Shown piece after piece: positions 7,126-41,163 of a DNA stretch of 64,000 nt. This stretch comes from Escherichia coli (GTDB taxonomy: Bacteria > Pseudomonadota > Gammaproteobacteria > Enterobacterales > Enterobacteriaceae). Made by a program: the position numbers and the translations under genes. Positions within the stretch are counted from its first letter, which is position 1, and the number at the start of each line of letters is the position of its first letter. The notes beneath the pieces were generated by a model. It saw nothing but the letters and a program-made list of their open reading frames with translations. It did no database searches and had not been told where the DNA came from. The stretch is taken from NCBI RefSeq assembly GCF_016903815.1, contig NZ_CP069973.1, one strand, 5' to 3'.

Positions 7126-9315
7126 TTAAGCCGTTTTCAGGTCGCCAACCGGACGGGCTGGCTCAACCGGGGGATAGTACGGTTCGTTATGACGCGCTTT
7201 ATTACGCAGACCTTCCGGCACTTCATACAGCGGGCCGAGGTGCTGATATTGCTGTGCCATATCGAGGTATTTTGCGCTACCGAGGGTGTCCAGCCAGCGG
7301 AACGCACCGCCGTGGAACGGAGGGAAGCCCAGGCCGTAGACCAGCGCCATATCCGCTTCTGCCGGAGTGGCGATAATGCCTTCTTCCAGACAGCGGACCA
7401 CTTCGTTGACCATCGGGATCATCATGCGGGCGATAATCTCTTCTTCGCTGAAATCGCGCTTCGGCTGGCTCACTTCTGCCAGCAGGTCGTCAACGACGGC
7501 GTCTTCTTCTTTCTTCGGCTTACCTTTGCTGTCTTCTTTATAACGCCAGAAACCGAGGCCGTTCTTCTGACCAAAGCGGTTGGCATCAAACAGCGCGTCG
7601 ATGGTATCGCGATAATCTTTCTGCATCCGCTGCGGGAAGCCTGCTGCCATGACAGCCTGGGCATGATGCGCGGTGTCAATGCCCACAACGTCCAGCAGAT
7701 ATGCCGGACCCATAGGCCAGCCAAACTGTTTTTCCATCACTTTGTCGATCTTGCGGAAATCCGCGCCGTCGCGCAGCAGCTGGCTGAAACCCGCGAAGTA
7801 GGGGAACAGCACGCGGTTAACGAAGAATCCGGGGCAGTCGTTAACCACAATCGGCGTTTTGCCCATCTTGCTCGCCCAGGCGACGACTTTCGCGATGGTT
7901 TCGTCGGAGCTTTTCTCGCCGCGAATAATTTCCACCAACGGCATCCGGTGCACCGGGTTAAAGAAGTGCATCCCGCAGAAGTTTTCCGGACGTTCCAGCG
8001 CGTTGGCCAGTTCGCTGATAGGAATGGTTGAAGTGTTAGACGCCAGCACGGTATCCGGGCGTACTTTCTGCTCGGTTTCTGCCAGTACGGCTTTTTTCAC
8101 TTTCGGGTTTTCGACAACCGCTTCTACCACAACATCCACGCGGTCAAAACCAGAGTAATCGAGCGTTGGGTGGATTGTGGAGATCACGCCAGCCAGTTTC
8201 AGACCATCGATCTTGCCGCGCTCAAGCTGCTTGTTCAGCAGTTTCGCGGCTTCGGTCATGCCGAGGGTTAACGACTTGTCGTTGATATCTTTCATGACAA
8301 CCGGTACGCCTTTCCACGCAGACTGGTAAGCGATGCCGCCACCCATAATGCCTGCGCCCAGCACAGCGGCCTGTTTCGGGGTTTCAACGTCTTTGGTGAG
8401 TTTCTTCGCTTTGCCTTTTACATATTGATCGTTAAGGAAAATGCCGACCAGTGCGCGGGCTTCGTTGGTGTGCGCCAGCGGGACAAAGCTTTTGTTTTCC
8501 AGATTTAATGCTTCTTCACGACCAAAACGGGCCGCCGCTTCAATGGTTTTTACTGCGGTGATGGGGGCCGGATAATGTTTCCCCGCCGTTTGTGCGACCA
8601 TCCCTTTAGCGATGGTGAAGCTCATGGTGGCTTCAATCTTGCTCAGTTTTAGCGGTTCCAGCTTCGGCTGACGTTTCGCTTTCCAGTCGAGGTCGCCGTT
8701 AATGGCCTGGCGTAAAATCGCCATCGCCCCTTCAACCAGTTTTTCTGCTTTGACTACACCATCCACCAGACCGATTTTCAGCGCCTGATCCGCGCCGACA
8801 TCTTTACCGGCGGCAATGATTTCCAGCGCACTGTCAGCGCCCAGCATACGTGGCATACGTACAGAACCGCCAAAGCCCGGCATGATGCCCAGTTTGGTTT
8901 CCGGCAGACCGATGCGCAGATCCGGCGTCGCCAGACGATAATCGGTCGCCAGCACGCATTCGCAGCCACCGCCCAGCGCATAGCCGTTGACGGCAGCAAT
9001 GGTCGGCACCGGGAGATCTTCCAGGCGATTAAACACGCTATTGGCAAAGTGCAGCCACTGACTTAACTGTTCTTCAGGAACGAGGAACAGGGACAAAAAT
9101 TCGGTGATATCAGCACCGACGATAAAGGCTGATTTGTTCGAACGTAGCAGCAGCCCTTTTAGATCTGATTGCTGTTCCAGCACGCCGATGGCCTCGCCGA
9201 GGCTGGCGACGGTCGCAGTGTCGAGTTTATTAACTGAACCTGGGGCATCAAATACCAGTTCGGCAATGCCATCTTCCAGCCAGTCAAGGTACAGGGTGTC
9301 GCCTTTGTAAAGCAT
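7126..9315 (-). CDS. fadB: Fatty acid oxidation complex alpha subunit FadB (729 aa)
   Basis: Track ORF 7126..9441; the K-12 protein starts [23 protein letters not shown]..., which sets the start codon at 9313-9315. Confidence 0.95.
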
Positions 9316-13874: not shown

Positions 13875-15416
<1,542 letters not shown>

Positions 15417-15484
15417 CCTTAAAGAACTGTGCTTTGCAGTGCTCACACAGATTGTCTGATGAAAATGAGCAGTAAAACCTCTAC

Positions 15485-15561
<77 letters not shown>

Positions 15562-15603
15562 AATTTGCACCGCAAATTTGAAGAGGTTTTAACTACATGT
15601 TAT

Positions 15604-15679
15604 GGGGCTATAGCTCAGCTGGGAGAGCGCCTGCTTTGCACGCAGGAGGTCTGCGGTTCGATCCCGCATAGCTCCACCA
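15604..15679 (+). tRNA. alaT: tRNA-Ala (anticodon TGC) in the 16S-23S spacer
   Basis: GGGGCTATAGCTCAGCTGGGAGAGCGCCTGCTTTGCACGCAGGAGGTCTGCGGTTCGATCCCGCATAGCTCCACCA. Confidence 0.97.
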
Positions 15680-15862
15680 TCTCTGTAGTGATTAAATAAA
15701 AAATACTTCAGAGTGTACCTGCAAAGGTTCACTGCGAAGTTTTGCTCTTTAAAAATCTGGATCAAGCTGAAAATTGAAACACTGAACAATGAAAGTTGTT
15801 CGTGAGTCTCTCAAATTTTCGCAACACGATGATGAATCGAAAGAAACATCTTCGGGTTGTGA

Positions 15863-18767
<2,905 letters not shown>

Positions 18768-18859
18768 ACAACGCCGAAGGTGTTTTGGCGGATGAGAGAA
18801 GATTTTCAGCCTGATACAGATTAAATCAGAACGCAGAAGCGGTCTGATGAAACAGAATT

Positions 18860-18979
18860 TGCCTGGCGGCCTTAGCGCGGTGGTCCCACCTGACCCCATG
18901 CCGAACTCAGAAGTGAAACGCCGTAGCGCCGATGGTAGTGTGGGGTCTCCCCATGCGAGAGTAGGGAACTGCCAGGCAT
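18860..18979 (+). rRNA. rrfA: 5S ribosomal RNA, 120 nt
   Basis: TGCCTGGCGGC...GGGAACTGCCAGGCAT, the canonical E. coli 5S ends. Confidence 0.95.
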
Positions 18980-19018: not shown

Positions 19019-19106
19019 GCATTGGTGCAAAACAAATGCCGGATGCGACGCTGGCTGAACTGCACCCCAAATGTTGGACATAATCTGACATCTGAAGGTG
19101 CAGTTT

Positions 19107-19628
19107 ATGAAACATTCATTTGAAGTAAAAATTGCCGCTGTAAATCATTACCTGGCCGGTCATGCAGGCATCATTTCTACGGCAAAACTCTTTCAACTTT
19201 CTCACACCAGCCTCTCACACTGGATTAATCTTTTTCTTCTTCACGGTCCTCAGGCACTGGATTGCAGACACAAGCGTAGCTATTCTCCTGAAGATAAACT
19301 TTGCGTGGTTCTTTATGCTCTCGGGCATTCTGAGTCTCTACCCCGGGTAGCTGCCCGGTTTAACATTCCCAGCCACAACACGGTTAAAAACTGGATAAAA
19401 GGCTACCGCAAATCTGGTAATGAGGCCTTTATCAGGCGCAGGAAGGAGAAATGCATGACCCGTTCTGATGATACCCATGAAAACGAGGCAAACATGACGC
19501 CGGAAGAGATGAAGAATGAGCTGCGTTATCTTCGCGCAGAAAATGCATATCTGAAAGCCATGCAGGAGCATCTCCTGGAAAAAAAGCGCCAGGAGCTGGA
19601 GAAAAAACGAAAGTCATCCGGAGCCTGA
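19107..19628 (+). CDS. IS3-family transposase OrfA (helix-turn-helix / leucine-zipper part)
   Basis: Track ORF 19098..19628; the ATG at 19107 lies 8 nt after GAAGG; the C-terminus ...RYLRAENAYLKAMQEHLLEKKRQELEKKRK is the coiled-coil typical of IS3 OrfA. Confidence 0.85.
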   Translation: MKHSFEVKIAAVNHYLAGHAGIISTAKLFQLSHTSLSHWINLFLLHGPQALDCRHKRSYSPEDKLCVVLYALGHSESLPRVAARFNIPSHNTVKNWIKGYRKSGNEAFIRRRKEKCMTRSDDTHENEANMTPEEMKNELRYLRAENAYLKAMQEHLLEKKRQELEKKRKSSGA

Positions 19629-19732
19629 GGTGCGGACACTGCCAGTCTGATCTGTTAAAGGCTGCAGGGCTGGCCAGAAGCACGCTGTACTACCAGCTGT
19701 CACTGCAGAAGGCTAAGGACAAGTATGCTGAT

Positions 19733-20488
<756 letters not shown>

Positions 20489-20515
20489 GGCGCGTCTTAT
20501 CCAGCCTACTCTTGC

Positions 20516-23700: not shown

Positions 23701-24413
23701 GTGCACAGAAAACCCCCAGCTAGGCTGGGGGTTCCGGAAAGCTTTCAGCTTTAAGCCAGTTATTAAAACCCCTTTTGATTTGTTAAAACACCTTGCGGTC
23801 TGGCAACTGCAAGTGTCAAACAAGAAATCAAAAGGGGGTCCCAATGGGGAACGAAAAGAGCTTAGCGCACACCCGATGGAACTGTAAATATCACATAGTT
23901 TTTGCGCCAAAATACCGAAGACAGGTGTTCTACAGAGAGAAGCGTAGAGCAATAGGCAGTATTTTGAGAAAGCTGTGTGAGTGGAAAAGTGTACGGATTC
24001 TGGAAGCTGAATGCTGTGCAGATCATATCCATATGCTTGTGGAGATCCCGCCCAAAATGAGCGTATCCGGCTTTATGGGATATCTGAAAGGGAAAAGCAG
24101 TCTGATGCTTTACGAGCAGTTTGGTGATTTGAAATTCAAATACAGGAACAGGGAGTTCTGGTGCAGAGGGTACTACGTCGATACGGTGGGTAAGAACACG
24201 GCGAAGATACAGGATTACATAAAGCACCAGCTTGAAGAGGATAAAATGGGAGAGCAGTTATCGATTCCCTATCCGGGCAGCCCGTTTACGGGCCGTAAGT
24301 AACGAAGTTGGATGCAAATGTCAGATCGTGTGCGCCTGTTAGGGCGCGGCTGGTAAGAGAGCCTTATAGGCGCATTTGAAAAACCTCCGGCTATGCCGGA
24401 GGATATTTATTTA
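23701..24413 (+). mobile_element. IS200-like element (IS200/IS605 family), copy A, about 0.71 kb
   Basis: Bounded by sequence identity to copy B (40452..41163). Left-end hairpin cccccagc-tag-gctggggg, a second structured region sequestering the tnpA RBS, and a right-end hairpin cctccggc-tat-gccggagg. The left boundary is uncertain by a few nt inside the T-run. Confidence 0.85.
23844..24302 (+). CDS. tnpA: IS200-type HUH (Y1) transposase TnpA (152 aa)
   Basis: Translation MGNEKSLAHTRWNCKYHIVFAPKYRRQVFYREKRRAIGSILRKLCEWKSVRILEAECCADHIHMLVEIPPKMSVSGFMGYLKG... with the HxH (HIHML) motif; closely matches recalled IS200/IS1541 TnpA. Confidence 0.9.
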   Translation: MGNEKSLAHTRWNCKYHIVFAPKYRRQVFYREKRRAIGSILRKLCEWKSVRILEAECCADHIHMLVEIPPKMSVSGFMGYLKGKSSLMLYEQFGDLKFKYRNREFWCRGYYVDTVGKNTAKIQDYIKHQLEEDKMGEQLSIPYPGSPFTGRK

Positions 24414-30073: not shown

Positions 30074-30220
30074 GATTCGCCTGAACATGCCCTTTTTTCG
30101 TAAGTAAGCAACATAAGCTGTCACGTTTTGTGATGGCTATTAGAAATTCCTATGCAACAACTGAAAAAAAATTACAAAAAGTGCTTTCTGAACTGAACAA
30201 AAAAGAGTAAAGTTAGTCGC

Positions 30221-30329
30221 GTAGGGTACAGAGGTAAGATGTTCTATCTTTCAGACCTTTTACTTCACGTAATCGGATTTGGCTGAATATTTTAGCCGCC
30301 CCAGTCAGTAATGACTGGGGCGTTTTTTA
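30221..30329 (+). ncRNA. spf: Spot 42 small RNA (spf), 109 nt
   Basis: GTAGGGTACAGAGGTAAGATGTTCTATCTTTCAGACCTTTTACTTCACGTAATCGGATTTGGCTGAATATTTTAGCCGCCCCAGTCAGTAATGACTGGGGCGTTTTTTA matches recalled Spot 42, including its terminator. Confidence 0.88.
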
Positions 30330-31357: not shown

Positions 31358-31600
31358 ATAGAGCGAGGACGCTAACAGGAACAATGACTCAGGATGAGGG
31401 TCAGGAGCGCCAGGAGGCGAAGACAGAGGATTGTCAGGAAGACAAACGTCCGGAGACGTAATTAAACGGAAATGGAATCAACACGGATTGTTCCGGCTAA
31501 TGGAAAAACAGGGTGTGTTGGCGGCCTGCAAGGATTGTAAGACCCGTTAAGGGTTATGAGTCAGGAAAAAAGGCGACAGAGTAATCTGTCGCCTTTTTTC
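31358..31600 (+). ncRNA. csrC: CsrC small RNA (CsrA-sequestering)
   Basis: It lies in the engB-yihI intergenic region where csrC maps in K-12, has at least a dozen GGA-containing motifs (AGGAC, CAGGAAC, CAGGATG, CAGGAGC, CAGGAGG, GAGGATT, CAGGAAG ...) and ends in the terminator aaggcgacagagtaatctgtcgccttttttc. The 5' end is approximate. Confidence 0.65.
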
Positions 31601-31668
31601 TTTGCTTGCTTTCTGTTAGATTCCGCCGCAAATCTATACTGAATAAAACGGCTAAAAGACGAACCATT

Positions 31669-38344: not shown

Positions 38345-38430
38345 TCGTGCAAAAGGGCTGCACCATGATGTGAATGTTGCACCAATATAGTGCTTCAATG
38401 GAAACATTAAGCACCATATTGGTGCAATGA
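38345..38430. promoter_or_regulatory. NtrC enhancer sites upstream of glnA (TGCACCA-N-TGGTGCA palindromes)
   Basis: Near-perfect palindrome gcaccatattggtgc at 38411-38425 plus related half-sites tgcaccaatatagtgc and tgcaccatgatg upstream. Confidence 0.75.
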
Positions 38431-38577
38431 CCTTTGGATAACCCTTTTTATGCTCCGTGAAAGCAATCACAAAGGGACTCTGCAATACTTGTTTGCGGAG
38501 GATGTTTGTGATCCTGTTTTGTAGTGCGATTAATCCGTGTACAATAACGCGCTATTTCTAATGCCTGAGGCAAAGTT

Positions 38578-40451: not shown

Positions 40452-41163
40452 GTGCACAGAAAACCCCCAGCTAGGCTGGGGGTTCCGGAAAGCTTTCAGC
40501 TTTGAGCCAGTTATTAAAACCCCTTTTGATTTGTTAAAACACCTTGCGGTCTGGCAACTGCAAGTGTCAAACAAGAAATCAAAAGGGGGTCCCAATGGGG
40601 AACGAAAAGAGCTTAGCGCACACCCGATGGAACTGTAAATATCACATAGTTTTTGCGCCAAAATACCGAAGACAGGTGTTCTACAGAGAGAAGCGTAGAG
40701 CAATAGGCAGTATTTTGAGAAAGCTGTGTGAGTGGAAAAGCGTACGGATTCTGGAAGCTGAATGCTGTGCAGATCATATCCATATGCTTGTGGAGATCCC
40801 GCCCAAAATGAGCGTATCCGGGTTTATGGGATATCTGAAAGGGAAAAGCAGTCTGATGCTTTACGAGCAGTTTGGTGATTTGAAATTCAAATACAGGAAC
40901 AGGGAGTTCTGGTGCAGAGGGTACTACGTCGATACAGTGGGTAAGAACACGGCGAAGATACAGGATTACATAAAGCACCAGCTTGAAGAGGATAAAATGG
41001 GAGAGCAGTTATCGATTCCCTATCCGGGCAGCCCGTTTACGGGCCGTAAGTAACGAAGTTGGATGCAAATGTCAGATCGTGTGCGCCTGTTAGGGCGCGG
41101 CTGGTAAGAGAGCCTTATAGGCGCATTTGAAAAACCTCCGGCTATGCCGGAGGATATTTATTA
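40452..41163 (+). mobile_element. IS200-like element, copy B, same orientation as copy A
   Basis: Near-identical to 23701..24413 (only a few substitutions seen); the same terminal hairpins are present. Confidence 0.85.
40595..41053 (+). CDS. tnpA: IS200-type HUH (Y1) transposase TnpA (152 aa)
   Basis: Track ORF 40544..41053; the internal ATG gives MGNEKSLAHTRWNCKYHIVF..., with an amino-acid sequence identical to copy A. Confidence 0.9.
   Translation: MGNEKSLAHTRWNCKYHIVFAPKYRRQVFYREKRRAIGSILRKLCEWKSVRILEAECCADHIHMLVEIPPKMSVSGFMGYLKGKSSLMLYEQFGDLKFKYRNREFWCRGYYVDTVGKNTAKIQDYIKHQLEEDKMGEQLSIPYPGSPFTGRK

Follow-up and report, generated by a model that had tools for sequence, protein, structure and literature searches.

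The transposase of IS3-family insertion sequences is a fusion protein, the upstream product being generally a DNA-binding regulator (PMC5009743). The frameshift rate sets the amount of this transposase and thereby how often the element moves. In E. coli the heptamer A_AAA_AAG is among the most efficient -1 motifs, and 72% of the heptamers in IS1 and IS3 elements are either this motif or A_AAA_AAA (PMC4066793); the high efficiency of A_AAA_AAG is due to tRNA-Lys(UUU), which re-pairs well from AAG to AAA. IS150 is a proven case of -1 frameshifting stimulated by a stem-loop (Vogele et al. 1991, as cited in PMC4066793), an SD stimulator is known from dnaX and from IS elements (PMC5009743), and IS911 has both an SD sequence and a hairpin (Sharma et al., PMC4066793). 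SD-like sequences are stimulatory when they lie 6-17 nt ahead of the motif's second base (Sharma et al., PMC4066793). IS1397 is reported to be specific for REP sequences, ISKpn1 being the other REP-targeting IS3 element (PMC1525189). The frameshift site of IS1397 is already catalogued, by RefSeq annotation and by Sharma et al. 2014, whose Tables S4 and S8 list 59 genes of 'Fam IS3/grpIS150/IS1397' as cluster A_AAA_AAG_5, marked 'true', and give for it SD-like and hairpin frequencies of 1.00 each, the hairpin having 38 nt, a spacer of 3 nt and a first stem of 4 bp; according to a footnote, the -1 PRF of IS1397 'can be safely inferred' rather than demonstrated (PMC4066793). The catalogued site is correct and ordinary.

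The window, the whole stretch of 64,000 nt of E. coli DNA that was analysed, contains at 19056-20487 on the plus strand a 1432-bp element of the IS3 family, IS150 group, which is 100% identical over its full length to RefSeq-named IS1397 elements; the identification rests on these and not on the ISfinder reference sequence. It has the features of the IS3 family, namely a length in the range of about 1.2-1.5 kb, the TG...CA repeats, overlapping ORFs, a fusion of HTH and DDE domains and a short target duplication (3-4 bp). The left inverted repeat TGAACTGCACCCCAAATGTTGGACA (19056-19080, 25 nt) starts with TGAAC at its 5'-TG end and has a single match in the window, and the right one, TGTCCAGGTTTTGGGGTTCAGTTCA (20463-20487, 25 nt), finishes with GTTCA at its CA-3' end. 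The 4-bp duplication TGGC is present at 19052-19055 and at 20488-20491, as seen from the sequence and from reconstruction of the empty site. The flanks of the element are the two arms of a palindrome, the left half at 19038-19055 (GCCGGATGCGACGCTGGC) and the right half at 20488-20509 (TGGCGCGTCTTATCCAGCCTAC), which from the REP consensus we take to be a split REP, or palindromic unit. The inverted repeat of 43 nt reaches past the IS ends and runs outward into these REP-like arms, which places the element in the REP loop. It stands between the 5S rRNA gene (18862-18977) and mobB; a complete rrn operon occupies 13875-18977.

Comparison by megablast with complete E. coli genomes gave matches at 7,621 places in 3,496 genomes, many of them 100% identical and annotated as 'IS3-like element IS1397 family transposase'. 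The best-matching strains have about 10 matches to the element per genome, the best copy being 100% identical, and the frameshift region was found in 1,720 of 5,426 complete genomes, with up to 40 or more copies in a genome. In E. coli strain 7/2 an identical element occupies the identical rrf-mobB site, and its CDS is a two-piece join with the remark 'programmed frameshift'. The sequence without IS1397 and one TGGC is contiguous in 5,279 of the 5,426 genomes, which shows that the insertion is polymorphic and relatively recent. The intact inverted repeats and duplication, the identical multicopy elements and the mostly empty site make it plausible that the copy at 19056-20487 is potentially active, as had been supposed from a reading of the sequence alone.

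The upstream frame, orfA (19107-19628, plus strand, frame 0), encodes a protein of 173 aa with an HTH DNA-binding domain that matches Pfam HTH_28 and HTH_Tnp_1; it begins with ATG 19107, equivalent to the start of the RefSeq CDS, or alternatively with GTG 19098, and terminates at TGA 19626-19628. The codons GAA AAA AAG at 19578-19586 lie in the orfA frame ((19578-19098) mod 3 = 0) and provide the heptamer A_AAA_AAG at 19580-19586 in phase, within a run of seven A (19579-19585). It is the sole in-phase X_XXY_YYZ heptamer anywhere in orfA. The string AAAAAAG itself is common, 28 copies being found in the 64-kb window against 17 +/- 4.4 in shuffled sequences; of these, only the copy at 19580 has an upstream frame-0 ORF of 164 codons together with a stop that follows after 15 codons and a -1 extension of 289 codons.

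The -1 frame is open from 19520 and overlaps orfA by 109 nt (19520-19628). Read from 19586, it gives APGAGEKTKVIRSLRCGHCQSDLLKAAGLARSTLYYQLS... and continues for 289 codons to TAA 20453-20455, so that the orfB part of the fusion (19586-20455, plus strand) carries the integrase core with D295 (19988-19990), D355 (20168-20170), E391 (20276-20278) and K398. The sequence-only reading had placed the heptamer at these positions in the orfA frame and had the -1 frame continue into the DDE domain; coordinates, phase and peptide proved exact, and no stop that would interrupt the fusion occurs within 19586-19733. The first ATG, GTG or TTG in the orfB frame is GTG 19733, and full-length OrfB thus depends on the frameshift.

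A slip on the heptamer yields an OrfAB protein of 449 aa in which ...LLEKK is followed by APGAGEK.... This protein matches the NCBIfam model NF033516 (transpos_IS3) over its full length with 389 bits (cutoff 160) and the Pfam families HTH_28, HTH_21, rve and rve_2, with all the DDE(K) residues (D295, D355, E391, K398) present, and the exact 449-aa sequence exists in the public protein collection under the name of IS1397 transposase. The proposal of an intact transposase of the IS3-family OrfAB type, made by -1 frameshifting, is supported by the domain scores, by the position of orfB in the -1 frame, by the RefSeq label 'programmed frameshift' and by the 'true' entry of Sharma et al. 2014.

In all 135 IS1397 proteins that were retrieved the junction is at the 7-A run or no more than 2 bases from it. 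The sequence EKKPPGAG is found at the junction in 109 of these 135 RefSeq proteins, and a slip on the heptamer predicts EKKAPGAG, with Ala at residue 161. Ala results whichever base within 19579-19586 is read twice; Pro, and with it the exact common RefSeq protein, results only if 19587, one nt past the heptamer, is read twice. The difference of one residue (window 19586-19588; proteins P0001 and P0016) arises because the annotated join is placed at a different base; it is a convention of annotation, and the mechanism is the same.

The sequences around the heptamer contain candidate stimulators on both sides. On the 5' side the SD-like AGGAG (19564-19568) lies 11 nt upstream of the heptamer, and the distance from the end of GGAG to the motif's second base is 12 nt, inside the 6-17 nt interval of Sharma et al. 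The same bases form a Gln-Glu codon pair, and protein constraint could therefore explain their conservation. They are also contained in a small predicted hairpin upstream of the heptamer, CAGGAG-CAU-CUCCUG (19563-19577, -6.8 kcal/mol). On the 3' side a hairpin is predicted at 19586-19633 (-17.6 kcal/mol, z about -3) with its core at 19590-19627 (-12.4 kcal/mol), the core corresponding to the 38-nt, spacer-3 hairpin of Table S8 of Sharma et al. Since the SD-like sequence and the hairpin core coincide with those listed by Sharma et al., the site is correct, annotated and published.

The fold at 19586-19633 ranks sixth among 434 windows of 48 nt in the coding region, the five better windows all spanning another hairpin at 20410-20438. 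The latter, with arms of 13 bp (ACTCAGCCCGGTA-GAA-TACCGGACTGAGT), stands shortly ahead of the stop of orfB and of the right inverted repeat; no other 48-nt fold of the element reaches its stability (-19.8 kcal/mol). The hairpin next to the heptamer starts 0-3 nt after it, compared with 4-10 nt in the empirical rule of Sharma et al. Five aligned IS1397 variants have the heptamer and AGGAG invariant; one stem change strengthens a pair, from U-G to U-A, and two others disrupt outer pairs of the stem. The sequence-only reading had advised looking for a stem-loop or pseudoknot downstream; a stem-loop is predicted, and a pseudoknot through the apical loop did not appear, the next 270 nt containing no Watson-Crick complement of at least 5 nt. 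A stimulatory role of the predicted downstream hairpin in the frameshifting of IS1397 is plausible but unproven.

From these data the following course of translation can be proposed. Most ribosomes on orfA would read GAA AAA AAG CGC... and stop at 19626-19628, giving the 173-aa DNA-binding OrfA. A minority would slip back by one base while two tRNA-Lys occupy AAA in the P site and AAG in the A site; the tRNAs would re-pair with AAA AAA, and reading would resume at GCG 19586 in the orfB frame, the product being the 449-aa OrfAB with the DDE catalytic domain, the transposase. AGGAG, 11 nt 5' of the heptamer, probably helps the slip by pairing with the anti-SD of 16S rRNA, and the hairpin at 19586-19633, which would meet the ribosome entrance while the heptamer is decoded, probably helps as well. 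At that moment the lowest pairs of the hairpin would already be inside the ribosome, and the core would lie at its entrance. The heptamer, the frames, the domain content of the fusion, the conservation and the presence of both candidate stimulators are matters of observation; the actual shifting of ribosomes at 19580-19586, its rate and the function of the stimulators are what we infer from them.

The conservation of the site was followed in a comparison set of 80 relatives taken from reference genomes, six elements of enterobacteria, ISKpn1 and ISEcB1 among them, and IS150 from K-12. It was found that 50 distinct relatives, the six enterobacterial elements and IS150 have an in-phase A_AAA_AAR within the conserved peptide '(M/A)ENAYLKK'. 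In this ancestral type of cassette the heptamer is followed by a spacer of 6 nt and then by a stem of 11 bp (GCCTTAGTTCA...TGAACTAAGGC), in which 91% of the cells are paired and 7 of the 11 pairs show compensatory changes. Such values were reached in 0 of 500 shuffles, and shifting the partner by one column cuts the pairing to 45-47%.

Alignments of protein and DNA with IS150, ISKpn1 and others located the homologous spot in IS1397 at CTG AAA GCC ('AYLKA', 19551-19559), where G AAA GCC (19553-19559, plus strand) is a vestige of the IS150-type shift site that is no longer slippery. The heptamer of IS1397 lies 27 nt (9 codons) downstream of it, and 'ENAYLK' and the conserved 'KVI' of OrfB are still 18 residues apart. 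When checked by hand, the homologous 5' arm of the ancestral stem (about 19566-19576) did not pair with the 3' arm (19621-19631).

Closer relatives were sought among 1.84 billion representative proteins with OrfA and by follow-up searches; a search with the fusion protein returned mainly IS1397 variants of 98-100% identity, and distant blastn against plasmids only fragments. The relatives that form a subclade with IS1397 have OrfA sequences 45-57% identical to that of IS1397 or of another member, and come from one Erwinia genome and otherwise from metagenomes. In all 10 for which DNA was available the heptamer stands at the exact offset of IS1397 with the codons around it varying, and in none of them is there a heptamer at the ancestral position. 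One decayed relative in the subclade has A_AAA_AAA instead of A_AAA_AAG. The more distant P0145, P0143, P0293 and P0297-P0299 keep 'YLKK' or 'YIKK'. The offset common to the 10 relatives, taken with 'YLKK' or 'YIKK' in the more distant ones, indicates that the relocation is old and defines the subclade.

As to the stimulators, IS1397 shares with 36 of the 50 ancestral-type relatives a GGAG placed 12 nt ahead of the motif's second base. An SD-like sequence at this place, read by eye against the SD list of Sharma et al., is present in 10 of the 11 subclade sequences, IS1397 included. Each subclade member folds some hairpin starting 0-6 nt after the heptamer (-11 to -22 kcal/mol), the downstream fold being significantly better than in shuffles in only 4-5 of the 11. 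The hairpin pairs of IS1397 projected on the subclade alignment had 58% of cells paired, compared with 56% in shuffles, with one compensatory pair, and RNAalifold on the 11 sequences gave a weak consensus of -3.2 kcal/mol with no covariation. Because of this weak consensus and shuffle-level pairing, no conserved structure is claimed for the relocated cassette.

It thus appears probable, and we hold it with good confidence, that in at least 11 lineages (IS1397, the Erwinia element and the metagenomic relatives) the 'YLKK' heptamer and its covarying stem were lost and another A_AAA_AAG appeared 27 nt downstream, the length staying the same, GGAG being spaced at 12 nt and a different, nearly abutting hairpin following, so that the positions of the two cassettes are not homologous. 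If true, this would be a natural migration of a frameshift site within the overlap window, with the stimulators passing from an IS150-like to a dnaX/IS911-like type. No description of the relocation of the IS1397 cassette was found in the literature, the original IS1397 papers aside. The relocation common to the subclade would be the one new point of this analysis, real in the data, to judge by the alignments, and of modest interest; the identity of the site at 19580-19586 is not altered by it.

Elements with the ancestral site often have another A run, rich in lysine codons, some 30 nt downstream, for example A_AAA_AAT in ISKpn1 (L085:1989-1995) and GAG AAA AAG in L096, the P0145 element. Such a run lies roughly at the position of the heptamer in the IS1397 subclade and could have been a starting point for the relocation. 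A scan of metagenomes with the 22-nt cassette pattern GAAAAAAAGCGCCNGGNNCAGG gave 100 matches, and none of the 80 loci examined by tblastn encodes an IS3 relative. The matches are unrelated coding stretches for Glu-Lys-Lys-Arg, one human-gut gene starting with ATGAATGAAGAAAAAAAGCGCCCGGAGCAGG being present in dozens of contigs.

The heptamer A_AAA_AAG at 19580-19586, kept in phase in the IS1397 variants and in the 10 diverged subclade relatives, is very likely the programmed -1 ribosomal frameshift site of IS1397, to judge from its sequence context. The same protein could also be reached if RNA polymerase added an A on the run 19579-19585, since an A8 mRNA would encode an identical OrfAB and the protein product would be indistinguishable; realignment of this kind is used by many IS elements, in some clusters alongside ribosomal shifting (PMC4066793; PMC5009743). 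The run of 7 A speaks for this route; documented bacterial runs have about nine A or T (PMC5009743), as in IS1447 with nine A (PMC6211511). Moreover, the motif is conserved in phase as A_AAA_AAG with its 3' G, and the SD-like sequence and hairpin at its sides are features of ribosomal signals, so that transcriptional slippage is given only a small chance.

A shift mainly at the second A run, GAG AAA AAA CGA (run at 19602-19607, plus strand), would give ...EKKRQELEKKTKVIRSL... with the junction peptide EKKRQELEKKTK. The -1 frame is open there and the fusion would have equal length, A_AAA tetramers are used by some IS elements (PMC4066793), and in ISKpn1 the main site is followed, 30 nt on, by a second site in phase, A_AAA_AAT. 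However, the run of IS1397 holds no X_XXY_YYZ heptamer, since re-pairing in the P site would have to be with GAA, and it could serve at best as a weak tetramer site, A_AAA, within the loop of the hairpin, with no stimulator downstream; it is altered in one IS1397 variant (AAAAAG) and varies in the subclade relatives, and none of the 135 annotated proteins retrieved has its junction there, all of which makes this site very improbable. Equally hard to credit is the view that the heptamer is a chance lysine pair and that there is no recoding, OrfA and a shorter OrfB being made separately. AAAAAAG is indeed frequent in the window (28 copies), and an ORF of 240 aa begins at GTG 19733; yet that ORF would be without the conserved HTH_21 part of the protein, for which 19586-19732 code (residues 210-263 of the fusion, Pfam), the heptamer is kept in phase across relatives with OrfA identities of 45-57% and variable surrounding codons, and the review PMC5009743 identifies the fusion as the transposase. 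The second A run, separate initiation of OrfB and a chance origin of the heptamer were accordingly rejected.

Several variant copies and relatives show other arrangements of the overlap. The IS1397 copy in E. coli SCPM-O-B-8794 (L037:1450-3793) has an internal deletion of 194 nt at IS positions of about 469-662 (window 19524-19717), through which the entire frameshift window is lost and orfA and orfB come to share one frame; further downstream this copy is interrupted by about 1.4 kb of inserted DNA. In L002, L003, L005, L014 (Pseudomonas asuensis), L043 and L051, orfA and orfB are one continuous ORF with no frameshift, L002 reading ENAYLKQARSLGSK, in which the ancestral cassette's -1 reading has become constitutive. 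In L065:502-560 and L071:1942-2000 (Pseudomonas endophytica and P. saliphila) orfB is still in the -1 frame, and the heptamer is replaced by CTA AAG GAG, leaving only an A_AAG tetramer as a possible shift site. The 57-aa proteins P0008 and P0013 from other E. coli genomes read ...EKKAPGAGEKRKSSGA, as would follow from copies in which the first run is 8 A long and the second 5 A; these lengths are either real homopolymer variants or sequencing errors. The IS1397 copies in the E. coli Nissle derivative EcN_Sk (L091) and in ZJ3920 (L089) are annotated as frameshifted pseudogenes; both have kept an intact heptamer and AGGAG, and the EcN_Sk copy has a 5-bp deletion at about window 19666-19670.

Elsewhere in the window, Rfam STnc490 has two full-length matches of 146 bits each at 23711-23834 and 40462-40585, and this occurrence about 17 kb apart points to a repeated element. 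CsrC (31358-31611), Spot 42 (30211-30329) and ES222 (38389-38496) were also located.

When the locus is set beside the described systems, nothing substantive distinguishes it from public IS1397 (RefSeq; cluster A_AAA_AAG_5, PMC4066793), with which it shares the DNA, the heptamer, the SD-like sequence and the 38-nt hairpin. IS150 of E. coli K-12, the type element of the IS150 group, resembles IS1397 in family, gene layout, the motif A_AAA_AAG and a homologous, leucine-zipper-like end of OrfA. It differs in that its heptamer lies in 'MYLKK', with a spacer of 6 nt and a stem of 10 bp (GCCTTAGCTC/GAGCTAAGGC) after it, no SD-like sequence having been found in it, whereas in IS1397 the ancestral site is mutated and the heptamer, 27 nt downstream, is accompanied by a different, nearly abutting hairpin and the SD-like AGGAG. 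ISKpn1 of Klebsiella pneumoniae likewise belongs to the IS3 family and shares the ORF layout and the OrfA segment '...ELRYLRAENAYLK'; its OrfA is, however, only about 38% identical, and it retains both the site and the stem of the ancestral IS150 type (AAAAAAG-ttgaaa-GCCTTGGTTCA...TGAACTAAGGC).

In unrelated genes, E. coli dnaX and IS911 have a three-part layout like that of IS1397, with an SD-like sequence some 10 nt upstream, A_AAA_AAG and a stem-loop downstream, the latter being in IS1397 a candidate. The SD spacing in dnaX is 10 nt. IS911 has a branched structure after a spacer of 6 nt, in contrast to the candidate hairpin of IS1397 with its spacer of 0-3 nt. The added value of the analysis is a comparative one: the cassette of IS1397 and its closest relatives and that of IS150 and ISKpn1 form a natural pair on which one may study how stimulators co-evolve with the slippery site.
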